Counted from the first letter of the stretch, positions 11,031 through 63,043 are shown. The stretch: 64,000 nucleotides of DNA from Kiritimatiellia bacterium (GCA_045545855.1 JAZQBR010000203.1:1264-65263), one strand, 5' to 3'. Numbers and translations: made by a program. The notes: a model not told the origin generated them from the letters alone.

Positions 11031-11300
11031 TCCAACTCCCAACTCCTCCACTCCTAACTCCCTCACTCCCACACTTCGCTACTCCCTCACGCCCCCACTC
11101 CTTCACGTCTCTCCACGCTTTCACCAAATTGACAAGTCCCTTCTTCCTCTGCACCCGGCTCACAAACAACAATACCTTCTTACCATCTGCACGCTCTACA
11201 CGGCTCAAACTCCCCCACTCCCTCTCTCCCACACTCTCAACTCTACATGTTTCTACACGTTCTACACGGCTATTTATATTCACCCCCAGCGGAGCGGCAA
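11000..11300. repeat. Strand-asymmetric CT-rich microsatellite-like array (AACTCC/CACTCC units)
   Basis: Runs of ctccaactccaactcatctctccaactcccaactcctccactcctaactccctcactcc. Overlapping ORFs (10946..11368, 10867..11424) are low-complexity artefacts. Confidence 0.6.
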
Positions 11301-11806: not shown

Positions 11807-12856
11807 GTGCGGGGAATGTCCATAAAGGGCGCGTTTCTTTCTATGCAGATAACAGTCAAATCATCATACCCCAAGGGCTGGCTTGACTATGACGGCCAAG
11901 TCGAGAAACTGAAGAAGCGAGGTCTGAAAATTGACGATGTGGAATTTGCCAAGCAGTTCCTTGCGTATTCCAACTACTACCGATTTACTGGCTACTGCCT
12001 CCGATTCCAGCACAAGGACGAATCCGGCGAGCGCGTGTTCAATGACGGTGTTTCCGTCTCCGACATAATCGACATCTACAAAATTGACAAAGGCCTCCGA
12101 GATTGTGTTTCAGATGCACTCGGAGCGATTGAGATTAGTTTCCGTTCCGCCGTTGCATACCATTTTGCGGAGGCACACGGGGCTTTTGGACATACGATAA
12201 AGGAAAATTTCGTCCGTCCATTCATAATGCGCCGGACAGATGCAAATGGTCGAGAGCAGCCATCCCCTTATGACGAGTGGCATGAGGGTCTTGTCTCTGA
12301 AACGCGGCGTTCAAATGAATTGTTCGTCAAACATTTTGAGGCGAAATATCTCCAGTTCCCCGATCTTCCTATCTGGACTGCGCTTGAGATATGCTCCTTC
12401 GGAACACTCTCCAAGATGTTCAAGAATATGCTGCGGTTTGACATGAGACCTATCGCCGCAAGATATTCTCTTCAACCTTCGACGCTGGATTCATGCATGC
12501 ATTCCTTCGTCTATGTCCGCAACATATGTGCGCACCATAGCAGACTGTGGGACAAGGAATTCGCCATATCTCCACAACTGCCGCCCGGCAGGAAATGGGA
12601 TGTCGTGCGCAATGCGAACAAAAAGTTGTATGCGGTAGCGATGTTGGTAAATTGGATGCTCGCGCATGATTTCTTCGGGAAAGCGATGCATTCAAACTGG
12701 AAGAAACGTTTTGAGACCGTCGTCGACTCTCTCTTCGATAGATTCCCAGAACTAGCACACCACACAGGTATTCCCGCCGACTGGAAGAACCAAGAAATTT
12801 GGTCTTCCATCAAGCCGGCTCAACCGCCCACGGAACCTAACCCATCTTCACTATAG
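11807..12856 (+). CDS. Abortive infection protein, Abi_2 family (AbiD/AbiF-like)
   Basis: Conserved Abi_2 block LEICSFGTLSKMFKNM and the signature VRNICAHHSRLWDKEF. Alternative start at 11843 (MQITVKSSYPKGW). Confidence 0.75.
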   Translation: MRGMSIKGAFLSMQITVKSSYPKGWLDYDGQVEKLKKRGLKIDDVEFAKQFLAYSNYYRFTGYCLRFQHKDESGERVFNDGVSVSDIIDIYKIDKGLRDCVSDALGAIEISFRSAVAYHFAEAHGAFGHTIKENFVRPFIMRRTDANGREQPSPYDEWHEGLVSETRRSNELFVKHFEAKYLQFPDLPIWTALEICSFGTLSKMFKNMLRFDMRPIAARYSLQPSTLDSCMHSFVYVRNICAHHSRLWDKEFAISPQLPPGRKWDVVRNANKKLYAVAMLVNWMLAHDFFGKAMHSNWKKRFETVVDSLFDRFPELAHHTGIPADWKNQEIWSSIKPAQPPTEPNPSSL

Positions 12857-13273: not shown

Positions 13274-13376
13274 GGTTAGACATCCTCTATGGATTCATTC
13301 CAAATATTATCGCCCTTACGCCTACGATTACGGGAACGGCCCCAAAGCAGAAGAAGGATAGGCCTAGGCAATTTAG

Positions 13377-13600: not shown

Positions 13601-13703
13601 GTGGCTGCATGGCGGCGTCTGTTGCGGCCCCAAAGAGAGGCTATGGTCACAAGCGTTGAATCGATCGTGAGGATAATTGCACCTAACACAAGAGCGATGA
13701 TCT

Positions 13704-19946: not shown

Positions 19947-20633
19947 TCATCTACGCCGCCAAGACTTAGTCTCAACAAACGGCGCTTTGATTATCTTTTC
20001 CACCAACGGATAAATACCGGCATAATGCGAAGCGTTCAGACATTCGGGGAATTGGCCATGCGTTGCAGCCCATGCCTTGGCTCGCCTAATTGCAACCTCT
20101 GTTTGCGTCATCTTCCCTACATCGAACTGTGCTCCGCTCTTGTGATCATACTTCGGCATCAACTTGTGCAACAGACCATGCAGTTCATGCCTATCGAGAG
20201 GGAAGTTGTCCATTTTAGAACCATCCTCTGTGCAGAGGACTCCCCAGATTTCTATACACGGCGACATGAACGCCACATGGATACGATAAAAAACATCACG
20301 CGATTCGCATCTAGCTATATCGCGGACCTTGCAATCATCATCGCATCTTTCCGGGCACTTCGTCAAAACCGACCTGACCTCCAACATCTCCTTAGCCTTC
20401 GCATCGTGGTCGAAAACAACCCATATTTCCGCATTGGGATTATGACGCAAGTCCTTGGCAACTTCGACAGCAAACCTCAAAGCTCGTTCCAACAGGACCA
20501 CGGGCGACGAGACGGATGGCTTCTGCACAATCCTAATGTCGCGATTCTTCGCCAAAGCCTGCAAGTAGCCCAGCTCCGTCTTGCCCTCATGAAAGAGGTA
20601 GATGACAGGCGAAACAGCATAATCATTCGCCAT
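19947..20633 (-). CDS. RloB-like protein (AbiLii-like partner of AAA_21 ATPase)
   Basis: N-terminal VIYLFHEGKTELGYLQAL resembles the RloB ilvcEGekTEpnYf motif. Overlaps the 3' end of the upstream ATPase gene. Internal ATG at 20633. Confidence 0.5.
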   Translation of the reverse strand: MANDYAVSPVIYLFHEGKTELGYLQALAKNRDIRIVQKPSVSSPVVLLERALRFAVEVAKDLRHNPNAEIWVVFDHDAKAKEMLEVRSVLTKCPERCDDDCKVRDIARCESRDVFYRIHVAFMSPCIEIWGVLCTEDGSKMDNFPLDRHELHGLLHKLMPKYDHKSGAQFDVGKMTQTEVAIRRAKAWAATHGQFPECLNASHYAGIYPLVEKIIKAPFVETKSWRRR

Positions 20634-22028: not shown

Positions 22029-22844
22029 TCACCTAAACCACTTATAGCCGTAATAGCCGATGTACTCGTGGATGAACGAGTTATTGCGGGCGAAGGCGTC
22101 GAAGCTCGGCAACAGACCACGCCATTTGAAAGGTTCATCCTTCCACGGCAATGCCTGATAATCCGTCGCGGCCGGGATGCACTCTATCTCAGGCGCATAC
22201 TTTTTGAACATGTACAAGCTTCGTTTCATGTGACATGCGCTCGTCACCAACAATATACTTGGCTTCTTTGCGACCTCTGCTCCTTTGAGCCTCTGCGTTA
22301 CAATTTCTCCAACAAATTTTGCGTTCTCCTCGGTGTTCACCGCCTTGTCCTCCAACACAACAGCCTCACGCGGAACACCCAAATCCACAAGCAATTTCAC
22401 ATCCCCGAACTCGGCACCGACATTGCTTGAAATGACGATAGGCGCTTTCCCAGCCTTCCAGAGCCTTGCCGCATGCCATGGCCGGTCCGCCGCCTCATTC
22501 ATGCAGGCGTAGGGATAGCATTCGTCACCCCAAACGCCTCCGCCCATCAAAACAATCGCATCAGCTTTCGTCATATCCTCCGCCAACTGTACAGGGTAAT
22601 CCTCTTCAAGCGGCAACGCCAGCCAACCGCCGACAATCGGCATCGACCAAAACCAGAACCATGACAAGGCCGTTCCCAAAGTCCACATCACTGCTTTACG
22701 CTTTTTGAGCAGGGCAAACGTCTGCCCCAAGGCAACAGCCACAATGCCTACAAACAGCGGATTGGCGACAAAACCGACAATCTTATTTATCGTGTTCACA
22801 ATTTCATGCAACCATGTAGAACATGTAGAACGTATAGAAACCAA
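22029..22844 (-). CDS. YdcF/ElyC-like DUF218 family protein (start uncertain)
   Basis: ILLVTSACHMKRSLYMF and VLMGGGVW motifs of DUF218 with an N-terminal TM segment. The listed N-terminal residues STCSTWLHE are encoded by a CATGTAGAA repeat arm, so the true start is probably downstream. Confidence 0.55.
   Translation of the reverse strand: MVSIRSTCSTWLHEIVNTINKIVGFVANPLFVGIVAVALGQTFALLKKRKAVMWTLGTALSWFWFWSMPIVGGWLALPLEEDYPVQLAEDMTKADAIVLMGGGVWGDECYPYACMNEAADRPWHAARLWKAGKAPIVISSNVGAEFGDVKLLVDLGVPREAVVLEDKAVNTEENAKFVGEIVTQRLKGAEVAKKPSILLVTSACHMKRSLYMFKKYAPEIECIPAATDYQALPWKDEPFKWRGLLPSFDAFARNNSFIHEYIGYYGYKWFR
22812..22840. repeat. Solo arm of TGTAGAA-unit element (ccatgtagaacatgtagaacgtatagaa)
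   Basis: Three tandem (C/A)TGTAGAAC units with no inverted partner nearby, between the GT4 stop and the ydcF-like gene. Confidence 0.5.
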
Positions 22845-22864: not shown

Positions 22865-24130
22865 TCAACTGACCACTTCCCCGTAAATCTCCATTAGTCG
22901 CTTGTAGTTCGCTTCTTCTGAATATTTAGTTTCAGCCTCGTGCTTTGCCGCTGCACATACTTCGTCATAATCTGAACGCGACAGAAACCGCTTTATCGCC
23001 GCCGCACATGCCTCTGCATTGCCAGCCTCAAACACTTCACCGAAACGGTTTTCCTGCACGATCTCTGGCAAGGCACCAAGATTGCTCGTCACAACAGGCG
23101 TTCCCTCTAGCATTGATTCCACGACCGTCAATCCAAATGTCTCCCACCATTCACTTGGAAGGACAGTAGCCTTGGATTTAGCCATAAGACGGAGTACTTC
23201 AGCGGCTGATTTCAGGCCGACAAACTCAACATCCCCCCCGTCGGCAAGTTTCTCAAGCTCCTGCCGATCAACACCATCGCCGACTATTATCAGCTTGAGG
23301 TTATTTAACCATGTAGAACATGTAGGAGCATGTAGATGTTCTTTATGACAAATAATCTTGAAAGCCTTTATAAGAGTTTCGACACCTTTCTCTTTCGATA
23401 GCCGCCCAACATAAACTATCTGATCTTTCTTAAGGATGGGGGATGAGGGATGTGGGATGGGGGATGGGGGTGTTATTCTCATCCCTCCTATCTCATCTCG
23501 CATCCCTATCACAAAATTGCCCTTCACAGCAATTTTGTGTTCTGGCCAGCCATATTCAACCATCTTCCGCTTCTGGAACTCGCTCAGTACAATAAACCTT
23601 GAAACCCACTTTGGCAACCGCCTTCGATAAAGCGCAATGTTGATTGCAAGCGGCAATGTTGCCGCCAGACTTCCGCGATAGCAACGATACTTGATTCCAT
23701 CACATACACATCTCTTATCCAAACACAGCGAGCACACTTTCCCGTCCCTCGTCGGCACGCCTGCCGCACAAGCCATTCGATAGTTGTGTAGAGTCATCAC
23801 GACCTGCGCATACTTGCTCGCCGCACGAACCGCCAACGGGCTGATAAGCGGGAAGGTGTTATGGAAGTGAACGACATCCGGCTTGAATTCTCTACATTTC
23901 TTCGCAACCGCCCGCGCCGCGAACGGATTGCCGACCGTACACAGCGCCCCTTTGATTTTACCCAAGATCCTTTTAATTGCATTGCCGCACCGTATTTCAT
24001 CACTATGCCGGGCATATACAGCGACCTCATGTCCATGCTTCTCCAGCATGGCCTTCTCTGCCTCGAAGACCTTGTTCTCGCCTGACGGCGCCGATGAGCC
24101 ATAGTAGTTATGGACAAGGAGAATCCTCAT
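22865..24130 (-). CDS. Glycosyltransferase, GT4 family, carrying two in-frame repeat-element insertions
   Basis: MRILLVHNYYGSSAPSGENKVFE... N-domain and ...ETFGLTVVESMLEGTPVVTSNLGALPEIV C-domain. The segments HLHAPTCSTWLNN and ITPPSPIPHPSSPIL are encoded by repeat elements at 23301..23337 and 23435..23510. Confidence 0.7.
   Translation of the reverse strand: MRILLVHNYYGSSAPSGENKVFEAEKAMLEKHGHEVAVYARHSDEIRCGNAIKRILGKIKGALCTVGNPFAARAVAKKCREFKPDVVHFHNTFPLISPLAVRAASKYAQVVMTLHNYRMACAAGVPTRDGKVCSLCLDKRCVCDGIKYRCYRGSLAATLPLAINIALYRRRLPKWVSRFIVLSEFQKRKMVEYGWPEHKIAVKGNFVIGMRDEIGGMRITPPSPIPHPSSPILKKDQIVYVGRLSKEKGVETLIKAFKIICHKEHLHAPTCSTWLNNLKLIIVGDGVDRQELEKLADGGDVEFVGLKSAAEVLRLMAKSKATVLPSEWWETFGLTVVESMLEGTPVVTSNLGALPEIVQENRFGEVFEAGNAEACAAAIKRFLSRSDYDEVCAAAKHEAETKYSEEANYKRLMEIYGEVVS
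23301..23337. repeat. TGTAGAA-unit element arm inside GT4 CDS (tatttaaccatgtagaacatgtaggagcatgtagatg)
   Basis: Shares the TTTAACCATGTAGAAC terminus with the elements at 28984 and 34190 and is read in-frame. Confidence 0.55.
23435..23510. repeat. G-rich palindromic element (GGGATGAGGGATGTGGGATGGGGGATGGGGG ... CTCATCCCTCC...CATCCCTATC) inside GT4 CDS
   Basis: Tandem GGGATG units on the left and complementary CATCCC units on the right. Read in-frame (PPSPIPHPSSPI). Confidence 0.5.
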
Positions 24131-24600
24131 GTTTAATTAGCCGTGTAGAACGTGTAGATCGTGTAGAATTATGCGGTGATGGTACGACGCTCGAATTTAT
24201 AGGAACCAAAATTTACAAGAAGTCCAACAGGATGCCGCGTGATCTTCAAGTAGTTTATAATCTGGGCAAAGTGTTCAGGAGCAAACGTTTTAACGGCCTT
24301 AAGCTCAACTATCAAGCTATCATTTACAAACATGTCTACAAAATACTCCCCGACACAATATCCGTCCCTGTCGAACACTTTAAGCGGTTTTTGTCGTTCG
24401 ACTTTATAGCCCGCAATTACAAGCCTATGCTCCAAGGCCGCCTCATAAACCTTTTCCAGCAATCCCGTGCCAAAGTATTCATGCACCCCATACGCAATCT
24501 GACCTACATCAGCTGCCAGTTTCCTTAATTCATCAGCGCAACCATCCATACTTCCCACCTTCTGCACGTTTCTACACGTTCTACACGGTTAGAACCCTTC
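24131..24600. mobile_element. ~470-bp cassette bounded by inverted arrays of CGTGTAGAA units, carrying a GxxExxY gene
   Basis: Left terminus ttaattagCCGTGTAGAACGTGTAGATCGTGTAGAA (24133..24168). Right terminus cacgTTTCTACACGTTCTACACGGttagaacc (24561..24600) is its inverted complement. The left end abuts the GT4 start codon and the right end overlaps the 3' end of the kinase-like gene. Confidence 0.55.
24169..24549 (-). CDS. GxxExxY family protein (PD-(D/E)XK-like small protein)
   Basis: MDGCADELRKLAADVGQIAYGVHEYFGTGLLEKVYEAALEHRL... contains the GLLEKVY = GxxExxY motif. About 126 aa from ATG at 24549 (the ORF track begins at an upstream GTG). Confidence 0.65.
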   Translation of the reverse strand: MDGCADELRKLAADVGQIAYGVHEYFGTGLLEKVYEAALEHRLVIAGYKVERQKPLKVFDRDGYCVGEYFVDMFVNDSLIVELKAVKTFAPEHFAQIINYLKITRHPVGLLVNFGSYKFERRTITA

Positions 24601-25465
24601 CCCTCCTTCTACACGGATATGCATCAATTCCCAACAGCCCTTTGACCTGCTTCTTAAACCAGGATTCATCCTTGCCCTCGACCCACTGCCCTGCGTCTTC
24701 CCAATCCCAGACATACAATTTGCCATCCACGATAGAACAGTTCCACGGAGCAAAGTCGCCGTGCGACAAACCCGCCCTTCTCAATTCGTCCAGAAATACA
24801 TAATGCTCCTTCTGCATCCGAACAGGGCTTTTGCCTTTCGGCAATACCGACTGCGCACTCCATGTCCATGCCCCATCATGCCCGACATCGCCTATGGCAA
24901 CAGGTACTTGCGCACACAAAGGCGTCATCATCAGCCTTTTCAGCACGTCCACCTCTTCCCTGATCGCCTCTGCCGCCTTATCTGTCCTTCCCAACTTCAA
25001 TATGATTTCATTTGTGTTTAACACAGAGTCACAGAGACGCAGAGGATTGGGAGAGTCAGAAGAAATCTCTGTGCCTCTGTGCCTCTGTGTTAAAACCTTC
25101 ACCAGCACCGTCAACTTGGACTTCGCCGAATCGTTTCCCATATAAAGCGTTATCCACTCTATCTTCTTTGCGAACTTTGCGTTCTTTGCGGCTAAATCAT
25201 CTATCGCTTTCCCTATTACCTCGTGTCCATCCAGTTCATCAAACCGCTTGATTGGCCCATGAACCATCTTCTCGATGGGCAGCCATGCGAACCATCCCAG
25301 AACCTTTACAGCCCACTTCAGCACCTTGCGCCCTGGCGTGTGCATCGCCAGCCCTGCCCGCTTGCTTGCGGCAGATGAAAGGTCAATCCACACGCGCGGT
25401 TTCGGAGACGGAAGGCCAAGGAATCTGTGCATAGATATTTTCATGTGCACCTCATGATACAACAT
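24581..25465 (-). CDS. Phosphotransferase-family kinase-like protein (APH/choline-kinase fold)
   Basis: Brenner motif LSHGDFAPWN and DWE motif VWDWEDAG. An in-frame palindromic element lies at 25019..25092. The C-terminus overlaps the cassette TIR. Confidence 0.5.
   Translation of the reverse strand: MLYHEVHMKISMHRFLGLPSPKPRVWIDLSSAASKRAGLAMHTPGRKVLKWAVKVLGWFAWLPIEKMVHGPIKRFDELDGHEVIGKAIDDLAAKNAKFAKKIEWITLYMGNDSAKSKLTVLVKVLTQRHRGTEISSDSPNPLRLCDSVLNTNEIILKLGRTDKAAEAIREEVDVLKRLMMTPLCAQVPVAIGDVGHDGAWTWSAQSVLPKGKSPVRMQKEHYVFLDELRRAGLSHGDFAPWNCSIVDGKLYVWDWEDAGQWVEGKDESWFKKQVKGLLGIDAYPCRRRGRVLTV
25019..25092. repeat. Palindromic element built from CACAGAG units (cacagagtcacagagacgcagagg ... cctctgtgcctctgtg) inside CDS
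   Basis: Tandem 7-mers on the left, their complement on the right, and a ~25-bp loop. Translated in-frame within the kinase-like protein. Confidence 0.5.
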
Positions 25466-28983: not shown

Positions 28984-29228
28984 ATTTAACCATGTAGAGC
29001 GTGTAAAGTTATGCCGTAATTGTGCGACGCTTTAATTTGCACGAACCAAAGTTTACGAGAAGACCTGCAGCGTTATGAAGAGTCGATTCATAAGCCTTTT
29101 CAAATAAGTCATTCTCAAAATATTCGTATACATCATACGCCACTTGCCCTACTCCCGAAGCGAGTTCTCTCAATTCATCTACTTCATCCATGCACCACCT
29201 CCACTCTACACGATCTACACGGCTATAC
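28984..29228. mobile_element. Degenerate second copy of the CGTGTAGAA-TIR cassette with a decayed GxxExxY gene
   Basis: Termini tttatttaaccATGTAGAGCGTGTAaag (28984..29008) and cacctccactCTACACGATCTACACGGctatac (29195..29226). The internal sequence is homologous to 24165..24330 but carries a deletion. Confidence 0.5.
29009..29191 (-). pseudogene. GxxExxY gene remnant (internal deletion)
   Basis: MDEVDELRELASGVGQVAYDVYEYFENDLFEKAYESTLHN...AGLLVNFGSCKLKRRTITA parallels the intact copy (…VGLLVNFGSYKFERRTITA) but lacks ~35 central residues. The listed ORF 29009..29305 reads through the flank. Confidence 0.5.
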
Positions 29229-30569
29229 ATACCTTTCCTCCATTCGTCCCATAATGAATGCAAGCGCAGCATCGACGCTTCCTTGCAGCAACATTGTCGT
29301 GTCAATCCATACTGCTCGCCTATTGCCGTCGCAAAACTTCTTCAAGTCCGTTACTTGCCGCCGCACTTCTTCCAACGACGTTTCCGGCTTGCGCGCATAT
29401 ATCTTTTCCGGGTCGCCGCCAAGGCATAAAATCAAGTCCGGCTTTGGTATGAACCACGAAAAGAAGCGCGCCATGCCAGTCGGCAGCTTGACGGCGCACC
29501 GTCTGGGATCGATCATATACTCGTAATAGTAGCGGTCGCAAATGACTATAGTAGGACGCTTCACAAGCCACGGGAATATTTTGACATAATAGCCAAGCGT
29601 ATAGTCGATGTAGTAATAGAAGAATCTAAACACCGACGCAATCCAGCCCGACGTCTTGCCTCCATGCGGATTGGTGACCGGTCCGATCATCGCGGGTTTC
29701 CCCGCCAACCGCGCCAGACTCGGCAAAAGCCCTGGGCGCAGATGGCGATATTCGACAGGATGGTGCATCATCTGATACAGCACGGGCGTCACTTTCTCGA
29801 TAAGCGTCGATTTGCCGCTGCCATCCGTCCCCAGAAACGCAACACAATATCCGGGATATTTGAGAAGCCGTCTATAGCGTTGCTTGATGTTGTTCAATTT
29901 TATTCTTGCAAGCGACAGCCAATGGAATCCGGCAATCTGCCGTATCCAAAGCGCACGGACAAGTCGTTTTGAATCGCGGAAGATCTCCTTGTCCGAACAT
30001 TCCCCTGAAAGCAGCTTCTCCACAAGCGCCCATCCCTTTGCGCCGTAGCACCCAATCATAGCCGCCTTCACGCCATTGGGATTCGCCGCATAAGCCGCCC
30101 TCGCCCGTGGATAATAATCTTTCTTGGTCCGACGGTTCGGCATAATCTCCTTGATGAAACTCGCCACATCGGAAAGCCCGCCAAGTCTGTAAAACGAATC
30201 TTTCTCCAACACCCGCTCCGAAAATGCTCTGGCGGAATCCATATACGGAATGCCAAAATACATAAAGCCGGGGAAGAGGTCGATGTGAAGCCCCCACCAC
30301 GTTCCGTCCGCATGCCGCCCGCCGAGGCAGGTAATCGTCGCCTCCACCGTGTACTTTACGGTAAATCCGCCATTGTATTTTTTCGCTATTTCATCTGCAG
30401 TGGCGAGAACCTTCCCGACCTCGCACGGCCCGTCGGCGAACAGATCGAGATCGCTGCCGCCAAGCGATTCCGGCAGCGTTTCGTTGTTGCGCATCACGGC
30501 GTACCGGACGCCGCGCTCCTTCAGCACCGCAAAGAAATCAAGCAAAAATAGGGTTTCTGGTGTTTTCAT
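29223..30569 (-). CDS. Two-domain protein with a C-terminal P-loop NTP-binding domain (nucleotide/sugar kinase-like), function unknown
   Basis: Walker A FLGTDGSGKSTL at aa ~245. The N-terminal ~200 aa contain GGSDLDLFADG (a possible nucleotidyltransferase-like GS...D.D motif). 448 aa, in the GT operon. Confidence 0.45.
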   Translation of the reverse strand: MKTPETLFLLDFFAVLKERGVRYAVMRNNETLPESLGGSDLDLFADGPCEVGKVLATADEIAKKYNGGFTVKYTVEATITCLGGRHADGTWWGLHIDLFPGFMYFGIPYMDSARAFSERVLEKDSFYRLGGLSDVASFIKEIMPNRRTKKDYYPRARAAYAANPNGVKAAMIGCYGAKGWALVEKLLSGECSDKEIFRDSKRLVRALWIRQIAGFHWLSLARIKLNNIKQRYRRLLKYPGYCVAFLGTDGSGKSTLIEKVTPVLYQMMHHPVEYRHLRPGLLPSLARLAGKPAMIGPVTNPHGGKTSGWIASVFRFFYYYIDYTLGYYVKIFPWLVKRPTIVICDRYYYEYMIDPRRCAVKLPTGMARFFSWFIPKPDLILCLGGDPEKIYARKPETSLEEVRRQVTDLKKFCDGNRRAVWIDTTMLLQGSVDAALAFIMGRMEERYV

Positions 30570-31657
30570 CTACTCTCCTTGACCAATCTCTCAACCGACA
30601 ACCTCAGGTCATATTTGAGCAACGATTCGTTGCTACGGGCAGGCAGACGGTCAATGGCCGCCTTGAAGTCAACCATATCGTTACAAGCAAAAACAGTACC
30701 GCTTATGCCATCCTCTATCATAACCGCCGCGCCCAAATGGCTGGCGACCACACACGGAGTTCCCCACTGCAAAGCCTCTGCGACAACTGCTCCGAATGTT
30801 TCTGAATGACTGCACAATACAAGACCGTCCGCCATTGCCATCATCGCGTAGAGGGAATCACCCTCCTTCCTGCCAGCGAACACCACCCGATCATCAAGTT
30901 TCAACGCGGCTACCATCGCTTTTAATTCCGTATCCAATACTCCGTCGCCAACTAAAACAAGTCCCGTTGTTTTAGGTTGCTCTCGCATCTGCTCTATTAG
31001 CCAAGGCAGATTCTTGACTTTCGCAAAGCGCCCTACGAACACAAGTACACGGTTCCATACCTTGGGGCAGTTCGCTTCTCGCCATGCACGCCCCGCCGCA
31101 TAGATTTTGTCTGCGTTCTTTCGCATTGTCGCCGTATCATGGATTATGGGCACGACAGAGTAGTTGTTGGTGGTTAGTCGATAGTCGTCGGTTGATAGAG
31201 AGCGATAAGCGTCAGCGGCGGCTTGACTGGGAACGATTATCTTTTCGACATTTCGCAGAACCCAATCGCGCATGATACGTCGCAATCCTCTCCGTGACCT
31301 AATCTGTTCGGCGCTGTCATCCATGCTCGTCCATATTTTGGCGCTAACGAGCCCAAGCTTCTTCAACAGAACCAGTTCAAGCGTGAGCGGGCTTGCTTCG
31401 TAGGCAAGAATGATGTCTGGACATTCACGACGGACAATCCCAAGGATGCCAGTGCGGATGCATCGTCCGCGTATGCAAACGCCGTTTGTCAAATGCTCAT
31501 ACGGCACTCTAAGCCTTTCCAGCAATGCTTTCTGGTCGAACTTCTGAGTCTGCAAATTCTCCTGAAGGAATACCATTTTCAATTCCGCCAGCTCACCGAG
31601 CAGATTGAAGAAATCAACCCGGTATGGCGCAAGAGCAGGATGGAAGCAGATAATCTT
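30566..31657 (-). CDS. Glycosyltransferase, GT4 family
   Basis: Starts at MKIICFHPALAPYRVDFF (ATG at 31657, overlapping the upstream stop). C-terminal ETFGAVVAEALQWGTPCVVASHLGAAVMIEDGISG. Confidence 0.65.
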   Translation of the reverse strand, partial: KIICFHPALAPYRVDFFNLLGELAELKMVFLQENLQTQKFDQKALLERLRVPYEHLTNGVCIRGRCIRTGILGIVRRECPDIILAYEASPLTLELVLLKKLGLVSAKIWTSMDDSAEQIRSRRGLRRIMRDWVLRNVEKIIVPSQAAADAYRSLSTDDYRLTTNNYSVVPIIHDTATMRKNADKIYAAGRAWREANCPKVWNRVLVFVGRFAKVKNLPWLIEQMREQPKTTGLVLVGDGVLDTELKAMVAALKLDDRVVFAGRKEGDSLYAMMAMADGLVLCSHSETFGAVVAEALQWGTPCVVASHLGAAVMIEDGISGTVFACNDMVDFKAAIDRLPARSNESLLKYDLRLSVERLVKESR

Positions 31658-32859
31658 CATTGACCGCGAACTACTCCTTCCATCCATTGATACATTCCGC
31701 CGACAAGAACATCCCACTGCTTGCGGGCAAGGAACCACTTCTTTATCGTCCCGAACTTCGCTCGTTTACGCTCTTCGTCCCAAGCAAGCACTTCACGGAT
31801 CTTGGCGACATAATCTTCCGCCGTGTCGCCTTCCGCAAACTCCACGACCTCGGCATAGTCAGGCGACAAGCTTTCAAGTCGCGTACTGACGACCGGGCGA
31901 CCGAAACTAAGGTAGTGCGGCAGCTTGCTTGGGTAGTTTAATATGTTGTCGGGATGATGGGGATCGCGTACATTCAGCAATACATCCGCGTTACGGCATA
32001 TGCGGTTCATCTCTTCCTCTTCCACGAAGCCTGGCAACTCAACGTATGGGTTGTCGCCAAACAACTTCGCAAGGATACGGCAACTGGACTTGCCGCAGAA
32101 TATGAACTTTATGTCGGGCGCAGCCATTTTGCGGACAACCTCAACCATGAAATCAAGTCCGCGCCACTGATCGAGCGCTCCTGTATGGACAAGTGTCTTA
32201 GTCGTTAGCCGCTGGTCGTTAGCCGTTAGCTTGTGGTCATCAACACCACTATCGACTAACGACTGACGACTATCGACTTCTTCTCCTCCACACCAACCAT
32301 CCGCCCCGCCGTCCATATGGTATTTTGGCACATCAACAGGGCAATGCGTATGCACCCACCACGAAAGCGAGACGATGCCGCTTGAATATTGCCCAGCCCG
32401 TTTCACCCAACCCCAGTCATCCTTGCGCGGATCGTCGCCATCAAGAATTATGGGGAAACACGGAACACCCATGCCGCGCAGGATTTTCATTGTGCGCACA
32501 AGGTAGGGCAAATGGCAATTGTAAAATATGGCCACATCGATTTTCTTCTGGCGAGCGATTTTCCTTGCCTCGACCGGGTATCGCCATACATACCACCAGT
32601 CGCGGAAATATTTGATTACAGGATATGAAAGTGCCACGCAATCCCACCCGTCAGGGTAGAGACGCTTATCGTATCCACGCCACAACACCTTGCCCTTCGG
32701 CCATGACACTTCGTATGTGTGGGTGAGTGCCGTCACATTGGATATCTTCGAGAGTGCAGTCAGGAACCCTCGCGCCCATTTCGCCGCCGCAAGCGAGACC
32801 GGGCGGTTCATCTGCGCCCATTCGCTGTCGTTCGGGCCTATGTAGAGTATGTTCAGCAT
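31657..32859 (-). CDS. Glycosyltransferase, GT4 family, with in-frame palindromic insertion
   Basis: MLNILYIGPNDSEW... and a GT4 C-domain (VLLNVRDPHHPDNILNYPSKLPHYLSFGRPVV). The segment VDSRQSLVDSGVDDHKLTANDQRLT is encoded by the GTCGTTAG-unit element at 32198..32278. Confidence 0.65.
   Translation of the reverse strand: MLNILYIGPNDSEWAQMNRPVSLAAAKWARGFLTALSKISNVTALTHTYEVSWPKGKVLWRGYDKRLYPDGWDCVALSYPVIKYFRDWWYVWRYPVEARKIARQKKIDVAIFYNCHLPYLVRTMKILRGMGVPCFPIILDGDDPRKDDWGWVKRAGQYSSGIVSLSWWVHTHCPVDVPKYHMDGGADGWCGGEEVDSRQSLVDSGVDDHKLTANDQRLTTKTLVHTGALDQWRGLDFMVEVVRKMAAPDIKFIFCGKSSCRILAKLFGDNPYVELPGFVEEEEMNRICRNADVLLNVRDPHHPDNILNYPSKLPHYLSFGRPVVSTRLESLSPDYAEVVEFAEGDTAEDYVAKIREVLAWDEERKRAKFGTIKKWFLARKQWDVLVGGMYQWMEGVVRGQ
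32198..32278. repeat. Palindromic element of GTCGTTAGCC units (tagtcgttagccgctggtcgttagccgttagc ... cgactaacgactgacgactatcgac) inside CDS
   Basis: Tandem units and their complements. A partial copy of the unit (accaacgactaacgacc) also occurs intergenically at about 49078..49100. Confidence 0.5.
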
Positions 32860-32860: not shown

Positions 32861-33907
32861 TTACGCCCTTCCCCCTGTCAACAAATTGAATATCCTCGGC
32901 GAACAACGCTTTGAAAGGAGGCCGACAAGGAGCGCCCCCCCCATCCCAGACAAGATTTTAAGGAGATACATCGTCAACGTTTGCAGATGAAACGCCAGCC
33001 CAACCCGTAACGCCACGGAAATCATCAATGTGTGGATTGCATAGATAAAGAACGTTAATCCGACAAATCTCCTGCTCAATGGCGATACACGATCAACCAT
33101 TTGCAGATTGGCAAACACTGCACACACGCCAGAGAAGACAAGCACTTTGTCTGCAATGTCAAACGCCATTTTGTTGCGATACACGCCGAACAAGACCTTG
33201 CAAACAATACTTGTGCAGAATATGGCAAGCACAAGATGTCTTCTATCGACAAGTGTTTTTCGCAATTCTAAGAAACTGTCGGCATCGCGCATTCTGAATC
33301 CAACCCATGATCCAACTGCGAGCCACAAGAAATTACCTGCGGCAAGCGGCAACGGCAGATAGTACCAGAACGTGCCTATCCACCCGGCAAGGAAGACGCA
33401 AATCAATACCACCCCATGCAATTTGTTCCGCAATAACGGAAGAATCAGGGGCGCAGCAAGCACATATATGAAAACTGTCTGCAAATACCAGAACTGCATG
33501 CAGCCAAGGCGGACATATGGGTCATAACCAAAAATCTTCGCCATAATTGACAAACCTTCATGCAATTCCCCAGACAGAAGCGCAAGCGCAAGATAAATGG
33601 CGTTCCATAGAACGAATGGAACATACAGCGTGATGAGTCGCTTCCTTATTTCATTGGTAAACCATGTGAACCATCCATTGCCCGGATATCCCTTGACAAG
33701 GAAGAACCCCGTGATCGTGAAGAAGATCGGTACGGCTATTCGTGGAACCGTGTATGTCCCCAGAAAATAGAACGCCGCCTCCAATTTGCCGACAGGCATC
33801 TCCCCAGCGAACCACGGCGCCATAGACTGGCAATGGATCGCGACAACAAGCAATGCGCACAGGAAAGCCACCGTGCGCAGACGCTCGCTTGTCTTGGCGG
33901 ATATCAT
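32861..33907 (-). CDS. Acyltransferase family 3 membrane protein
   Basis: N-terminal RTVAFLCALLVVAIHCQSM, with about 10 TM helices. A homopolymeric G-run encodes MGG near the C-terminus. Confidence 0.7.
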   Translation of the reverse strand: MISAKTSERLRTVAFLCALLVVAIHCQSMAPWFAGEMPVGKLEAAFYFLGTYTVPRIAVPIFFTITGFFLVKGYPGNGWFTWFTNEIRKRLITLYVPFVLWNAIYLALALLSGELHEGLSIMAKIFGYDPYVRLGCMQFWYLQTVFIYVLAAPLILPLLRNKLHGVVLICVFLAGWIGTFWYYLPLPLAAGNFLWLAVGSWVGFRMRDADSFLELRKTLVDRRHLVLAIFCTSIVCKVLFGVYRNKMAFDIADKVLVFSGVCAVFANLQMVDRVSPLSRRFVGLTFFIYAIHTLMISVALRVGLAFHLQTLTMYLLKILSGMGGALLVGLLSKRCSPRIFNLLTGGRA

Positions 33908-35196
33908 TTGCCTCGCTCCTGTTTGACAACGTTTTCAAGCGCGGCAATGTAACGCTTCACGACAGCGGTCATCATGAATCGTTCTTTCACGTTCCTTACG
34001 GCATTGCCAGACATCTTTGCCCTCGCCGAATAATCAAGCATCAAGTTCTCGATGCATTCCGCCAACTTCTCTGGTCTTGTTACGTTGCATACGACACCGC
34101 CCGCAACGGATGATTCCGATCTTTCCTTTTCATTTAGCCGTGTAGAACAGGGAGAACATGAAGGATTTTCTACACGCTCTACATTTTCTACATGGTTAAA
34201 TCCATCGATTCCCAACACCCACGGCACCGCGCCACTCTTCTCGCCGCCGACGCACGGGACTCCATGCGCCATCGCCTCTATGAAAACCATGCCAAAACTC
34301 TCTTCCAAGGACGGACTGCAAAATACATCCGCCTCTTTCTGCAACGCTCGCCGTATCATCTCCGAAGAGCCATAACCTCGCAACTCTATGCACCCGGAAT
34401 CGATGAGACGACCCATGCCATTCTGCCGCATCCAAGGATCGGCACCGCGTTGATCCATATAATGTCCATACACCACCAGCCGCCATTCCGGGTGTCTCGC
34501 ATGGAGCAGCGCAAATGCCTTGAAAAGCGTCTTAGAGTTCTTGAGGCGACCCCACTGCGTGACACACAATATCGTCCGCGCTTCGAGGCGGATTTCAATC
34601 CTGCCGGCCTGGGCGGTTTCTTCCTTAATGGCATTTGGAATAATCTCCACCGGCTTGCGATAGAAGTTGAAGTTTCGCAGATCTTCCGCCATGTGCGGAG
34701 AAACGGTAGCCATGTGCTTGACATGTGGAAAAACAAAGAACTGTGAATATATCGCCTTGAAAAGCGATGCGGCATTGCGCATTGTCCATACGACCCGCCA
34801 AGGAGAGTCATGCGCCACAACAAGCGTTGGAACGCCACTTTTCAGAGCAGCACGTGCATACTGATATGTCCAGTTCGCCAGTATGACATCCGGCTTTGCC
34901 TTATGTATTTCGTCAACCATACATGACACTTCTTTTGAATAGAACGTCATGTATTGATAGCGGCAACGTCTTTCGGGAACAATCCTGATCTCCAGACGGC
35001 CAGCCGTATAGGTGGTTGCCGCGGAATGGTTCATGTCTGTGACGACTACAGAAACCTCATGCCCGGAATCAACCAATGCAGCGACCAGATCGCTTCCGTA
35101 GTTGAAATCCCATCTGACGGACGGCAATTGCCTGTCGAACTTGAATCGTTCTGCAAGACAAGACAGCGTGACACGCCCTAAAAACGCTATCTTCAT
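33904..35196 (-). CDS. Glycosyltransferase, GT4 family, with an in-frame miniature CGTGTAGAA-TIR element
   Basis: Starts at MKIAFLGRVTLSCL (ATG at 35196). C-domain ...ADVFCSPSLEESFGMVFIEAMAHGVPCVGGE... The segment GFNHVENVERVENPSCSPCSTRLNEKERSE is encoded by the element at 34133..34202. Confidence 0.65.
   Translation of the reverse strand: MKIAFLGRVTLSCLAERFKFDRQLPSVRWDFNYGSDLVAALVDSGHEVSVVVTDMNHSAATTYTAGRLEIRIVPERRCRYQYMTFYSKEVSCMVDEIHKAKPDVILANWTYQYARAALKSGVPTLVVAHDSPWRVVWTMRNAASLFKAIYSQFFVFPHVKHMATVSPHMAEDLRNFNFYRKPVEIIPNAIKEETAQAGRIEIRLEARTILCVTQWGRLKNSKTLFKAFALLHARHPEWRLVVYGHYMDQRGADPWMRQNGMGRLIDSGCIELRGYGSSEMIRRALQKEADVFCSPSLEESFGMVFIEAMAHGVPCVGGEKSGAVPWVLGIDGFNHVENVERVENPSCSPCSTRLNEKERSESSVAGGVVCNVTRPEKLAECIENLMLDYSARAKMSGNAVRNVKERFMMTAVVKRYIAALENVVKQERGK
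34133..34202. mobile_element. Miniature (~70 bp) cargo-less copy of the CGTGTAGAA-TIR element (MITE-like) inside a CDS
   Basis: tttagCCGTGTAGAACagggagaacatgaaggattTTCTACACGCTCTACATTTTCTACATGGTTAAAtcc. Both termini match those of the 24131 and 28984 cassettes, with only ~20 bp between arms. Confidence 0.55.
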
Positions 35197-35606
35197 CTCT
35201 TGCCTCCAAGCAATGCAGGACAAAATCTCAATATTGCGACAGAAGCAACCCAGCTGACGCATATAGTCGCAAACATAATGCCGCAAAGCAGAATCGCAAG
35301 ACTTCCGCCAGTCAGGATGCATCCAGATGGCAATAAGCGGACGGACGCGACGATGATGAATTTATGCAATAGCATTATTCCGAGCGAACATTCCCCTATG
35401 CGCTTCCAAAGTGGATTCGAGAGGCATCCCGCGATGCCGGCAGACAGCGCAGCGCCGACAAGTCCGGACATCCATGCGATGTAACTGAACATAATCCTGT
35501 TAGACCAACCATTATCGTGCAACCAGTTAACCGACATGGCCACAGCCACAATGACAGGCACCCCAAGCATGCTCCACATCCCCCGGCAAACGACTTGCAT
35601 CATATC
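35193..35606 (-). CDS. Possible small polytopic membrane protein downstream of wzy (start uncertain; may be an acyltransferase C-terminal remnant)
   Basis: The listed ORF 35193..35912 overlaps the wzy-like gene by ~190 bp. Its distal 135 aa (MMQVVCRGMWSMLGVPVIVAVAM...IMLLHKFIIV...) are strongly hydrophobic. Confidence 0.25.
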   Translation of the reverse strand, partial: DMMQVVCRGMWSMLGVPVIVAVAMSVNWLHDNGWSNRIMFSYIAWMSGLVGAALSAGIAGCLSNPLWKRIGECSLGIMLLHKFIIVASVRLLPSGCILTGGSLAILLCGIMFATICVSWVASVAILRFCPALLGGKR

Positions 35607-35722
35607 CTTCTCGTCAGACGCGATTGCGGTAATTCGTCCAACGAAGTAGAAGGACAGCCACCTCGGCAGCACCACAAGCGTGATGAGCAATCCTTTATAT
35701 GCGTCTATCGAAGCATTCTTCT

Positions 35723-37069
35723 TCACAACACGCCCCCAGTCCCATACTTCGGCGGAAACCGCCACGCTTCCTGGGTGAATGGCCGGAATGGCACAACGCA
35801 CGGCAATTGCCTGAACTTCCGCGAACAGAGGGCCACGGCAAGGCCAAGAAGGACTTTGGTGCTGCCGCCACGCAGAATCGGTTGCGCCTCGCCTACGCCT
35901 GTAAGCGCCCATACGCCGAACAGCATCAATGCAAGCCGTCCCATCGTCCCCATGCGTACGCTACGCACCATGAGTCCAATGGCAAACAGCGCGAACAGCA
36001 GCGACCCGACATATCCCGACTGCCTGAATATCTGGAAATACACACTATGATAATTTCCTAGTACAATTTGTCCCGTCTCGGTAATGTCGACATATCCGCC
36101 AGAACCAAACCAACGCTCTCCCACCTTGGCAGAGTTGTAATAATTGATATACCAATCAATTCTTCCCGACGAGAACTGGTTTAGATCAGTGCCTTTCTCG
36201 TAGGAAAACACGCGCAGATTTGAGATAGAACTTGTAGTGAGCACAATCAGCAGACCGAGAAAAATCACAAGAACGCTGAAAATCGCCATGCGCTTCGCGC
36301 GGTTTCCGCCAGATTTGGCGAAGATGAAATACCATGCAATCGGCAGAAGTCCGAGACAGGCGTTTCGTGCACCAGTGCGTATAAGAAGAAGAGTCAAGAC
36401 GAGCACATTGACGACTCCGACTATCTTCATCCACTTCATCCGCGTATATTGCTGTTTGCCGAGCACATAGAGGAACAGATAAGGCAAAAGACCAATCATC
36501 GAAAGCCCGATCCAGTTCACGTTGCTCTTTCTGTCCGCTATGTCGGCAGAAAGACCTTCCACGTTCACTCCGGCGCGCATGTTCGCATCCATCGCTTCCG
36601 GCGAGAGACTGCCCGTCACAATATAGAAGAACGTAACAAGCGTGAAGCAAACCGCAGCAGCCCGCACGATGCGTTCCATCCCTCCAGGCGTTCGCAACGC
36701 CCACATGCCGACGAAATACCCTACGCTGATCAACTCAAACAGAATAATCAGATACTGCGAGAAGCAGATCATTGCGTATTTGCCGAAAAACATGCTTACG
36801 AGCATCCACCCCCAGAAAAGGAGAAACAACAGCAGAACGCCATTGCGACTGCACATTCTAAGCGAATAGCCGTCGGTCAGAAACGAAATCGCCAGATAGT
36901 AGAAAAGCACCCCGAAGAAGAATATTCGCGTCGGGACAAAAGGCGTTATGGCCGTCCATGTAAGCAATCCGGCAAGTACCCAAGGCGTGATTTTGTCACG
37001 AATCCTTTGCGGAATCGTTGCCTTGAATATCCAACTGAATATGATTTCCGCTATCAGTCTGCTAAACAT
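35723..37069 (-). CDS. wzy: O-antigen polymerase/ligase-like (Wzy family) polytopic membrane protein
   Basis: More than 10 TM helices and a large periplasmic loop with NYHSVYFQIFRQSGYVG (Wzy_C-like). 448 aa. Confidence 0.55.
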   Translation of the reverse strand: MFSRLIAEIIFSWIFKATIPQRIRDKITPWVLAGLLTWTAITPFVPTRIFFFGVLFYYLAISFLTDGYSLRMCSRNGVLLLFLLFWGWMLVSMFFGKYAMICFSQYLIILFELISVGYFVGMWALRTPGGMERIVRAAAVCFTLVTFFYIVTGSLSPEAMDANMRAGVNVEGLSADIADRKSNVNWIGLSMIGLLPYLFLYVLGKQQYTRMKWMKIVGVVNVLVLTLLLIRTGARNACLGLLPIAWYFIFAKSGGNRAKRMAIFSVLVIFLGLLIVLTTSSISNLRVFSYEKGTDLNQFSSGRIDWYINYYNSAKVGERWFGSGGYVDITETGQIVLGNYHSVYFQIFRQSGYVGSLLFALFAIGLMVRSVRMGTMGRLALMLFGVWALTGVGEAQPILRGGSTKVLLGLAVALCSRKFRQLPCVVPFRPFTQEAWRFPPKYGTGGVL

Positions 37070-61592: not shown

Positions 61593-61655
61593 CTCGTTTG
61601 TCTATTCGTAAAATTTTGTTCAAATAAGCAAAAAACGACCCCGCGCGTTGCTTAA
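61593..61655. repeat. ~60-bp direct repeat, left copy (gtctattcgtaaaattttgttcaaataagcaaaaaacgaccccgcgcgttgcttaatt)
   Basis: A near-identical copy lies at 63117..63180. The two bracket the DUF4143 ATPase gene. Confidence 0.65.
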
Positions 61656-63043
61656 TTGGCAAGCATCTCTCGACCTAGATTGTACGCAAAACGCGATGTT
61701 GAAACAAAAGTCAGCTCCACCGGACCCACGTGCTTCACGCCTTCTTGCGAACGCGATGTGACAACCATCCGGTTGAGACCGTTTCGTTCGGCAAAGTTGA
61801 CCGCCTCTTTGATCTCGGCTGGATGATCAAAAGGTCCGTCAGACCATTTCACTTCGAACATTGAATCGGCCCGCTGCGTGCCCGCGTCTATCCGCACAAA
61901 GTCGACCTCGCGATTTTCTCGGCCGACTTTCCAATTTGCATAGCGCCAGGACATGCGCTCTTCGCCAATACCCAGTTGCGCGGCTACGGCCGTCTCTATG
62001 ATATGCCCGAAATACACATCATCAACGGCTCTTGCCGGCTGGAACATGGCCGCTCTCAACGACGGATTTGTCAAATACAACTTGAACTGCATGGCGCGTT
62101 TGAGCGACAGAGCGTTCAAGTCAACCCTGTCATGCCGCACAATCAAGAAAGCTTCCTCCAGGTATCTAAGCAGATTTGCCACCGTGTGCTTTGTCAGGCC
62201 CGACCCTTGAGAAAGCCCCTCATACGACTGAACCATGCCGGAATGAAACGCCACATAAGAAAAAAAGGCCTGCAAATCACGAACATCGTCTATATGGTAA
62301 AGGCTCGGCAAATCGCGAAGCAGAACTTTATCGACTATATCGCGCTGGATGAACTGCCCGGGGTTGCCCCTCACCGTCTGGTTTGCGACAAGTTCAGGAT
62401 ATCCACCGTAGTTTACATAGTCTATGAAGCATTTGTTCGCCGCCTCCATCGACTCGAACATGCGCTCGTCTTCGCCAATCATCAAGCAGTATTCGTAAAA
62501 GCTCAACGGCGCCAGCTTAAGATCGGTAAAACGCCCGGCCCCGCTTTCTCTCGCGCCCTTCACAAGAACGGATGCCGCCGAACCCGATGCAGTGAAGCGT
62601 ATATTGGGATATGTATCGGTAAGCGTTTTCAGCGATGTCTCCCAATCCTTCATATACTGTATTTCGTCAAAGAAGACGAACAACCGGTCTAGCCTTGGGT
62701 CGCGCCCGGTGAATCTGCACGCTTCTCTTAACAGTTCTTCAAGTTCGCTGCCATGATATACAGGCACATCTATCGGCAGAAAGATTATGTTCTTGGCAGG
62801 TATATTATCCTTAGTAATAAGCCGATGGATGGCGTGTTGCATAAGCCAGGTTTTACCAACACGCCTGGGCCCCATGAGCAAGAGCGCCCTTTTAACCCCG
62901 TCAAGCTTCAGAAAGCTATAGAATTTGTCAAGAAACCGTCTTGGCGTGACTGAGGTATAGCCTTGATCGACAATCCCAGTCTCCCACCAGGGATTGTCCA
63001 GCTTGATGCGATCGACAAACATTTCTTTTGATAACATAATCAC
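61652..63043 (-). CDS. AAA-family ATPase with DUF4143 C-terminal domain (archaeal-ATPase-like, AAA_14)
   Basis: Walker A LLLMGPRRVGKTWLMQH, Walker B RLFVFFDEIQYMKDW, and the C-terminal DUF4143-like region. 463 aa. Confidence 0.7.
   Translation of the reverse strand: MIMLSKEMFVDRIKLDNPWWETGIVDQGYTSVTPRRFLDKFYSFLKLDGVKRALLLMGPRRVGKTWLMQHAIHRLITKDNIPAKNIIFLPIDVPVYHGSELEELLREACRFTGRDPRLDRLFVFFDEIQYMKDWETSLKTLTDTYPNIRFTASGSAASVLVKGARESGAGRFTDLKLAPLSFYEYCLMIGEDERMFESMEAANKCFIDYVNYGGYPELVANQTVRGNPGQFIQRDIVDKVLLRDLPSLYHIDDVRDLQAFFSYVAFHSGMVQSYEGLSQGSGLTKHTVANLLRYLEEAFLIVRHDRVDLNALSLKRAMQFKLYLTNPSLRAAMFQPARAVDDVYFGHIIETAVAAQLGIGEERMSWRYANWKVGRENREVDFVRIDAGTQRADSMFEVKWSDGPFDHPAEIKEAVNFAERNGLNRMVVTSRSQEGVKHVGPVELTFVSTSRFAYNLGREMLAN

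Follow-up and report, generated by a model that had tools for sequence, protein, structure and literature searches.

How does a palindromic repeat come to lie, in frame, within the coding sequence of an enzyme, and what kind of element is it? The question is raised by a stretch of 64,000 nucleotides from a Kiritimatiellia bacterium (GCA_045545855.1, JAZQBR010000203.1:1264-65263), which we refer to in its entirety as the window, and in which a short inverted repeat is found inside a gene for a GT4 family glycosyltransferase (GT) on the minus strand (33904..35196). A first-pass annotation, made from the sequence alone, had described this repeat as a cargo-less miniature of a larger element. Here we present evidence that the feature is very probably a cargo-less and partly decayed pair of the arms that bracket cassettes encoding GxxExxY proteins, a dispersed selfish repeat that is tolerated in a permissive loop of the glycosyltransferase.

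An in-frame insertion in a glycosyltransferase gene

The host gene encodes a protein of 430 amino acids (aa) that is assigned to the GT4 family (GT-B fold) by its Pfam domains PF13439, PF13579, and PF00534 (Glyco_transf_4 / Glycos_transf_1), and it resides in a polysaccharide locus with a Wzy-like gene on one side and an acyltransferase gene on the other. The closest relatives of this protein (P0003, P0004, and P0005; 395 aa, 72-80% protein identity) read ...GAVPWVIG-D-GGVVCDV..., with a clean gap at the position of the insert. At the DNA level, the syntenic loci L002 and L003 are 81-85% identical to the window on both sides, the alignment breaks at 34101/34212, and the empty site has the sequence ...TGGGTGATTGGTGATGGCGGTGTC... 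Comparison with these insert-free orthologues, by means of protein alignments, the L002/L003 DNA, and a residue-to-coordinate mapping, sets the ends of the insertion at 34102..34209 (minus strand), such that 108 nucleotides (nt), or 36 codons (IDGFNHVENVERVENPSCSPCSTRLNEKERSESSVA), take the place of a single D/E/N codon for a net gain of 105 nt. Alignment with orthologues had been proposed as a check in the first-pass annotation, and these alignments show the segment to be an insertion relative to them. The annotation had also given the insert as 70 bp and a multiple of three; 70 nt is not a multiple of three, and the length that the orthologues define replaces it. The minus-strand open reading frame (ORF) of the GT does run through the insert as described (...GFNHVENVERVENPSCSPCSTRLNEKERSE..., ...GIDGFNHVENVERVENPSCSPCSTRLNEKERSESSVAGG...), with VENVERVENPSCSPCSTR as the insert peptide segment in the predicted translation, and both termini of the repeat are present.

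Direct reading of the insert reveals a palindromic core of 68 nt (34133..34200), which on the plus strand starts with tttagCCGTGTAGAAC at 34133 and ends with TTCTACACGCTCTACATTTTCTACATGGTTAAA at 34200. Its sequence, TTTAGCC GTGTAGAAC AGGGAGAAC ATGAAGGAT T TTCTACACG CTCTACATT TTCTACATG GTTAAA, is that of an inverted pair of arms, each consisting of a TTARCC end followed by three 9-nt units (RTGTAGAAC), and 16 cargo-less hairpins from other genomes share this layout. Of the two arms, one is well preserved (34168..34200, minus strand; in mRNA sense TTTAAC CATGTAGAA AATGTAGAG CGTGTAGAA, translated as FNHVENVERVE). The other (TTTAGCC GTGTAGAAC AGGGAGAAC ATGAAGGAT; 34133..34166, plus strand), translated on the mRNA as PSCSPCSTRLN, is decayed to the point that its outermost unit alone still pairs with the opposite arm, and the RNA fold of the insert region is moderate (-23.7 kcal/mol, z = -2.0). 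The ~20 bp that were thought to separate the two termini are the two decayed 9-nt units AGGGAGAAC and ATGAAGGAT, and thus the element is an arm pair of the ordinary 3+3-unit kind in which one arm has degenerated, rather than a pair of termini around a spacer. Some 36 nt of the insert fall outside this palindrome: 9 nt on its 5' side and ~31 nt on its 3' side in mRNA sense.

The codon that was replaced is an insertion hot spot, which is a new finding. A single residue occupies the insert position in 97 of 114 homologues, and inserts of 12-40 aa, representing at least eight unrelated types, are present at the same codon in 17 of the 114. The syntenic, 74% identical orthologue in L004/L005, for example, has a TAGTCG-type hairpin at the hot spot (34102-34209), and L006 has a direct repeat of GAGTCGAAG units there. 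Leucine is found at position -2 in 13 of the 17 insert-bearing homologues versus 29 of the 97 insert-free ones (p = 6e-4, with no correction for phylogeny).

An AlphaFold2 model of the host GT, built on 114 sequences, adopts a two-Rossmann GT-B fold (mean predicted local distance difference test score (pLDDT) 93.6, predicted template modelling score 0.90); among PDB structures it best matches MshA, BshA, and PimA, all of them GT4 GT-B enzymes. Only at residues ~330-365 does the pLDDT fall to 50-57, the remaining fold being at ~97; the insert, whose position in a GT-B model the first-pass annotation had suggested examining, thereby maps to a loop of low confidence that connects helix 324-328 to strand 367-370 in the model. 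The annotation had further reasoned that damage to a conserved catalytic motif would speak against a tolerated insertion. The EX7E motif (E299-x7-E307), which is invariant or nearly so in the homologue alignment, is intact and lies upstream of the insert, and the invariant residues around it are untouched. The insert is predicted by the model to form a disordered 36-residue surface loop that leaves the catalytic fold intact, and within the enzyme it probably serves no function of its own. Note that the start of the insert, or the position just before it, is where most NCBIfam alignments to the host GT stop (before or around residue 338).

Arms shared with GxxExxY cassettes

The first-pass annotation placed a full-length parent of the repeat in the same window, and here it was right: the same arms flank an intact GxxExxY (PDDEXK_3) gene (24169..24558) in a cassette at 24138..24591 on the minus strand, as they do each close homologue of that gene that was examined. 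The arms of the cassette (24138-24168 and 24561-24591) have a 21-nt core that is 95% complementary, with a duplex energy of -49.6 kcal/mol. The encoded protein is a member of the GxxExxY family TIGR04256 (E = 2.5e-33; 114.9 bits versus a cut-off of 35), and its homologues carry PF13366 and the name 'GxxExxY protein'. A second cassette with the same arms (28984..29225, minus strand) is internally deleted and retains a 61-aa GxxExxY remnant made up of N- and C-terminal parts only (jackhmmer E = 7.6e-21). The ORF right after this degraded cassette (27769-28980, minus strand) begins with a GT C-terminal domain (Glycos_transf_1, residues 6-153) that is followed by 250 aa of no recognised nature. 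The idea that the cassette splits a GT is unsupported, since the ORF upstream (29223..30569, minus strand), which has a P-loop kinase-like part, shows no GT N-terminal domain.

A search for homologues of the GxxExxY protein returned 665 clusters at E up to 1e-5. In the closest subfamily (at least 77% identity), these arms flank the gene in every locus examined (L006, L138, L139, L142, L148-150, L154, and L155), and the cassette usually follows the stop codon of a gene for an FnlA-like dehydratase and precedes the start codon of the gene after it. Among more distant GxxExxY genes the same layout recurs with other 9-mers, namely GCAAAGAAC (L067, 52% identity), ACGAAATAC (L019, 40%), and GACAGGATT (L155); both arms are complementary in L067 and L019, and the upstream arm only is seen for the GACAGGATT family in L155. 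A GxxExxY gene of Bacteroides finegoldii, located between radA and the gene for an FAD-dependent protein on plasmid NZ_OY725952.1 (L159:1440-1911), is flanked by 30-nt arms that are 90% complementary and contain CACAGAGGA-type 9-mers, which extends the arm architecture to the Bacteroidota. One GxxExxY gene of Treponema has a 16-nt inverted repeat, and one of Fusobacteria has direct repeats instead. Arm duplexes around GxxExxY genes range from -37 to -56 kcal/mol, that of Treponema being -20.6. These comparisons make it appear that paired arms covary systematically with GxxExxY genes across phyla, differing in sequence and still complementary, and this we regard as a new finding.

As a separate observation, L155:3-1447 contains three tandem GxxExxY genes on one short contig, two of them with different arm families (GACAGGATT-type and GTGTAGA-type), a layout that suggests arrays of cassettes. 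The GxxExxY protein has no sequence relative in the PDB at E up to 1 and no match in PHROGs, its PADLOC defence match is marginal (PDC-S02, E = 0.0014), and a survey of PD-(D/E)XK proteins lists PDDEXK_3 as "unknown". In the literature on GxxExxY, PF13366, Kiritimatiellae repeats, and links between intervening sequence (IVS) proteins and O-antigen we found no description of iterated-arm GxxExxY cassettes or of such repeats in Kiritimatiellae.

Within the window, the 10-mer CCGTGTAGAA (allowing one mismatch) occurs 21 times versus 2.5 expected, a count reached by none of 100 shuffles. The occurrences cluster at 11182-11276, 22810-22840, 23303-23335, 24138-24168/24561-24616, 28984-29008/29205-29225, and 34138-34197. 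Two of these clusters are solo arms: one, of three units, is intergenic between GT gene 22865..24130 and a DUF218 gene (22810..22840, plus strand), and one is in frame (HLHAPTCSTWLNN) inside that same gene, the second GT4 gene of the window (23303..23335, plus strand). Two more arms of the family are found amid other short-tandem-repeat modules at 11182..11276 (minus strand). GT gene 22865..24130 (minus strand) belongs to a highly conserved family, with 64-92% identity to the window protein among 25 aligned homologues, the lengths of those listed ranging from 369 to 465 aa, and with three in-frame hypervariable sites that hold different modules in different relatives. In the window copy, two of the three sites are taken up by the solo arm and by a GGGATG-type module (23303-23335 and 23420-23480); other members of the family have at such a site NHVEHVEQVE, which is the 9-mer read in frame. 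Moreover, GT 31657..32859 contains in frame (EEVDSRQSLVDSGVDDHKLTANDQRLTTKT) a TAGTCG-type hairpin of period 7 (32190..32290, minus strand; -61 kcal/mol), in place of which its L004 orthologue has a shorter and different sequence, and a solo TAGTCG arm is present in the interdomain linker of GT 30569..31660. In total, four GT genes of the window harbour five translated repeat modules, and a kinase-like ORF harbours a further hairpin.

The repeats extend well beyond this one genome. When one genome per species was scanned for CCGTGTAGANCGTGTAGA (17 specified bases, 596 Gb, ~70 matches expected by chance), the matches fell mainly in Kiritimatiellae, "Verrucomicrobia", and rumen/gut metagenome-assembled genomes (MAGs), with many contigs per MAG, and the module TTTAGCC(GTGTAGAxC)x3 was present at nine or more loci with unrelated flanks within single MAGs. 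The 16 cargo-less arm pairs found in other genomes (61-84 nt) indicate that the cargo-less form is common. A scan of IMG/VR for the arm pattern gave chance matches only, inside high-GC coding sequence, and thus no link to phages, and a scan of the whole window for Rfam families (at gathering thresholds), tRNA, and tmRNA found nothing.

We took a census of reading frames for 76 arms with a clear TTARCC end at 65 loci, an open frame being one that is stop-free for at least 60 codons on both sides. Long open frames contain 31 of the 76 arms (41%), compared with 71.5% of random 30-nt windows, and 29 of these 31 arms use one and the same frame, which reads F(S/N)(R/H)VE(R/H)V(E/D) or ST(R/C)STRL(N/K). 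The window GT copy (FNHVENVERVE ... CSTRLN) uses this frame as well. The repeat in the GT gene is one copy of a multi-copy family that shares its arms with GxxExxY cassettes, occupies a loop, and is read in the same frame in many other proteins. In-frame residence of repeats appears to be common in Kiritimatiellae-type bacteria. Side by side with this census stand two genes for PurF-like amidophosphoribosyltransferases (L084:3149-5203 and L067:3031-5112; 71% identical) that contain five or more variable repeat-module islands, one of which is present in only one of the two, indicating that in-frame repeats are not confined to polysaccharide genes. We rejected the 9-nt period as a general frame-proofing design; it is found in GxxExxY-type arms only, the period of other module families being 7-8 nt.

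Mode of spread and alternative explanations

According to the first-pass annotation, a distant orthologue with the same segment would mark the segment as native sequence. Such a protein exists. P0006 (locus L001) is only 54% identical to the host GT and carries the same insert, a match of 105 of 108 nt that takes in the decayed arm as well as the non-palindromic flanks. (L127 is the L001 organism again and has the same insert.) The host gene and the P0006 gene are 40-60% identical at the nucleotide level over most of their length, whereas the four 20-codon blocks that span aa 300-379 are 85%, 93%, 97%, and 87% identical. Consistent with a tract of raised identity, codons are identical at identical amino acids at 28 of 44 flank positions versus 48 of 135 positions elsewhere (p = 0.0015). 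Independent transpositions would not recreate the same decay together with the same extra 36 nt, and the transfer of a segment by recombination is therefore the simpler explanation. Thus the anticipated distant carrier was found, yet an identity of 105/108 nt in a short tract of an otherwise 40-60% identical gene argues that its segment is a transferred piece, not an ancestral one. The presence of an identical decayed insert within a short tract of high identity, which is a further new finding, points to recombination rather than repeated transposition, and we infer that the copy, or its ancestor, reached GT genes and moved between them by homologous or ectopic recombination, in a tract of a few hundred nt, and not by fresh precise transposition. 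A junction-specific metagenome scan found no carrier beyond the L001 organism.

On these findings the arm pair is very probably a dispersed selfish repeat of Kiritimatiellae-type genomes, with one copy in a permissive surface loop of the GT4 enzyme. Because the period of the arms is 9 nt and the frame used (VE(R/H/N)... then ...STRL(N/K)) is stop-free and hydrophilic, such a copy would simply be translated as a disordered 36-residue loop. It is speculative that the arms are recognised by the GxxExxY nuclease they bracket and that this nuclease powers the primary spread. In a wider and distinctly tentative form, which we consider less likely than not, GxxExxY (PD-(D/E)XK) genes might be the active core of phylum-spanning, operon-dwelling selfish cassettes, with paired iterated arms as nuclease recognition sites and cargo-less pairs as non-autonomous, REPIN-like derivatives seeded in frame through Kiritimatiellae proteins (HVEHVE...STRSTRLN); their spread between homologous genes by break-induced gene conversion might then give rise to hypervariable loops at fixed hot spots of polysaccharide enzymes.

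Several observations weigh against the reading of the GT feature as a selfish arm pair of GxxExxY cassettes that was passed on by recombination. The arms also enclose non-coding cargo (L022/L124, L040, and L114), and chimeric pairs with the arms of other families occur; their link to GxxExxY is thus not exclusive. Comparison of the filled window site with the empty L002/L003 sites reveals no target-site duplication and no frame-compatible direct repeat; the only flanking repeat, GGAATC, would imply an out-of-frame ancestor. Neither a precise end of the element nor an empty intergenic site could be defined. No transposase, integrase, or REP-associated tyrosine transposase (RAYT), and no DDE, HUH, or serine/tyrosine recombinase, is present among the window proteins that were scanned against Pfam, which represent part of the window's ORFs. 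The ~36 nt outside the palindrome have no second copy in the window or in 160 loci. Moreover, the flanks with raised identity to L001 encode the most conserved part of the protein, and constraint could explain part of that identity. Finally, translation of the insert and activity of the GT enzyme are predicted.

As for the source of the ~36 nt, a 15-nt similarity to the 3' end of ORF 24581..25465 (E = 5) is not significant and was set aside. We also considered that these nucleotides come from a donor intergenic site at which one gene ended and another started (TGG ATT TAA ... ATG AAA AGG), an idea that fits the location of cassettes between genes.

Of the alternatives, the one that survives best, and which we nevertheless consider improbable, is a classical MITE (miniature inverted-repeat transposable element) that a trans-acting transposase, possibly the GxxExxY nuclease, pasted into the GT codon independently in the window and L001 lineages. 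The terminal inverted repeats with iterated subterminal units, the many dispersed copies, and the larger element with the same ends all speak for a MITE, as does a site that is struck repeatedly by different module families, and the enrichment of leucine at position -2 could indicate a target preference. Set against this are the missing target-site duplication and the lack of a recognisable transposase among the Pfam-scanned window proteins. Furthermore, both lineages share the decayed arm and the same 36-nt non-palindromic flank, which independent insertions would not reproduce, and identity continues past the insert into the flanks. The first-pass annotation had called the repeat MITE-like and tolerated inside proteins. 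The second half of that description, in-frame behaviour like that of Rickettsia palindromic elements (RPEs), stands; the label 'MITE', which implies insertion driven by a transposase, is unsupported for a feature around which no target-site duplication, transposase, or precise boundary was found and whose spread points to recombination.

More improbable still is that arm pairs are functional cis-elements of polysaccharide operons, such as stems that RNase III processes, stabilisers of the mRNA, or elements that control how the next gene is translated, and that the GT copy has been kept as an mRNA regulator. The arms of GxxExxY genes do stay complementary despite the sequence differences between subfamilies (-37 to -56 kcal/mol), cassettes lie exactly in the gap from one stop codon to the following start codon, with the ATG 3-8 nt past the arm in an A-rich stretch, and, as there is no Rfam family for the arms, none is excluded. 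However, little of the pairing is left in the GT copy (z = -2.0), orthologues do without the insert, and arms are rarer in ORFs than random windows, as expected if they are tolerated rather than selected. In addition, the summed energies of sense and antisense arm duplexes do not differ (-481.8 versus -479.5 kcal/mol), which leaves pairing at the DNA level indistinguishable from pairing at the RNA level and offers nothing that favours RNA over DNA. It is scarcely credible that the segment is no insertion and represents native GT sequence, in the form of a low-complexity loop specific to the lineage, or an artefact of assembly, for although the distant homologue P0006 has the same 36 residues and the loop varies in 17 of 114 homologues, the segment belongs to a dispersed DNA repeat family, is absent in the closest orthologues, is 97% identical to that of the P0006 gene when the remaining gene is 40-60% identical, and is present in three independent assemblies (window, L001, and L127).

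Neighbouring modules and comparison with known systems

Other parts of the window hold further features of note. Next to the host gene, ~650 nt in the gap between it and the Wzy-like gene (35197-35843), with a 239-aa ORF (35193..35912), are absent in L002, where both genes abut; the counterpart in L004/L005 is an intact gene for a 328-aa acyltransferase, and the window stretch may be a decayed acyltransferase gene. The APH-like kinase ORF 24581..25465 (minus strand) contains a hairpin of another family (25017-25094; TTTAAC ACAGAG-type 28-nt arms, 89% complementary and 22 nt apart) and a CTTTGCGAA x2.8 module (25166-25190), and its end reads into an arm (…IRVEGGEGF*). An Abi_2 (Abi-like) gene (11807..12856, plus strand) is bracketed by a pair of 97-nt direct repeats with 84% identity (10930-11026 and 12834-12930), and each repeat includes a GGCCGCCCTCTCGGACGGCC hairpin and is followed by tandem modules of the CTCCAACTCC type; the whole (10930-13012) looks like a defence gene inserted in a repeat-rich gap. 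Downstream of the repeat-rich 10930-11276 is a gene (10275-10778, minus strand; Pfam E = 3.3e-8) for a CesT-family (type III secretion chaperone-like) protein, and at the end of a gene cluster (13375-13616) are two 68-nt direct copies, 88% identical, each with the near-perfect palindrome AAATGATAAAACAGGTCAGACCTATTTTATCATTT. An AbiLi-like AAA ATPase gene (20623-21900, minus strand; PADLOC AbiLi E = 3e-74, Pfam AAA_21) is located at the edge of the polysaccharide locus, and L006 has a similar AAA_15/AAA_21 gene within its locus. Lastly, an AAA_14/DUF4143 ATPase gene (61652..63043, minus strand) has on both sides a 58-nt direct repeat, 98% identical (61600-61657 and 63120-63177), and GC-rich repeats of families D2, D9, and D15.

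How, then, does the arm pair compare with elements that are already known? We rejected an integron attC site (RYYYAAC ... GTTRRRY cores, 57-141-nt imperfect palindrome), since the window copy fits on one side only and the ends of the 16 hairpins vary (TTAGCC, TTGGCC, GGTTCA, GGCCAA ...), with attC cores not kept. Intervening sequences of 23S rRNA and homing-endonuclease genes show a likeness, in that inverted flanks form a long stem around a small ORF, tolerated sites are struck recurrently, and the flanks travel along. The hot spot with inserts in 17 of 114 homologues, its eight or more insert types, and the tract of high identity fit such behaviour; the GT copy, however, has no nuclease gene, its host gene encodes a protein, and the insert is predicted to be translated rather than excised.

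Repetitive extragenic palindromic (REP) sequences, the hairpin-forming REPINs, and their RAYT genes resemble the present system by analogy only, in having a single gene flanked by inverted short repeats along with many dispersed, cargo-less inverted doublets; as in GTAG-tagged REPs (PMC3733652), unit GTGTAGAAC happens to contain GTAG. The enclosed gene here encodes a PD-(D/E)XK-type GxxExxY protein of 125-129 aa (TIGR04256/PF13366) and not a Y1 HUH transposase, the arms are direct tandem repeats and not small palindromes, other arm families lack GTAG, and 41% of arms lie in open frames whereas REPs are extragenic. An assignment to the REP/REPIN-RAYT system was rejected on these grounds.

MITEs (Correia, ERIC, and the QMITE of Coxiella; PMC10969869, PMC5896051) are likewise small, non-coding, and multi-copy, with terminal inverted repeats and occasional in-frame fusion to ORFs, and dozens of copies that answer to this description are present in Kiritimatiellae-type MAGs. 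A larger element with the same ends (24138..24591) encodes a nuclease-like GxxExxY/PDDEXK_3 protein. The likeness ends with the target-site duplication and the insertion-sequence-type parent with a known transposase, neither of which was found; recombination best explains spread here.

The closest parallel is with RPEs (Ogata et al. 2000, 2002, summarised in PMC10969869), which have been described as inserting in frame, encoding a conserved peptide, and being compatible with the protein fold. Like RPEs, the repeats studied here are short and palindromic, fall into several families, and lie in frame in unrelated protein genes at fold-tolerated sites with a conserved peptide, and the GT copy is absent in orthologues and compatible with the fold. 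They differ in that their arms are tandem 7-9-nt iterations behind a TTARCC end, in their length (60-84 nt versus about 100-150 nt), in having a gene-bearing form (the GxxExxY cassette) with the same ends, and in that one codon is struck by several families and one copy has apparently been passed by recombination from one divergent gene to another. With a unit structure and a host phylum that differ, no homology to Rickettsia RPE families is expected. We conclude that the element is an RPE-like in-frame selfish repeat, carried as a passenger that is tolerated in a loop. Such inserts enlarge and diversify glycosyltransferase loops, break hidden Markov model alignments, and fragment metagenome assemblies. 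The repeats are now tied to the GxxExxY proteins, which form a widespread family of no known role and are bracketed by protein-specific complementary arms, and the pairing of arm and protein provides a hypothesis, that of a nuclease and its cognate arms, which can be tested at the bench. In-frame 'protein-coding palindromes' have so far been regarded as a speciality of Rickettsia (PMC10969869), an obligate intracellular host; the same behaviour is seen here at high density in an unrelated free-living/gut lineage of the Planctomycetes-Verrucomicrobia-Chlamydiae group.

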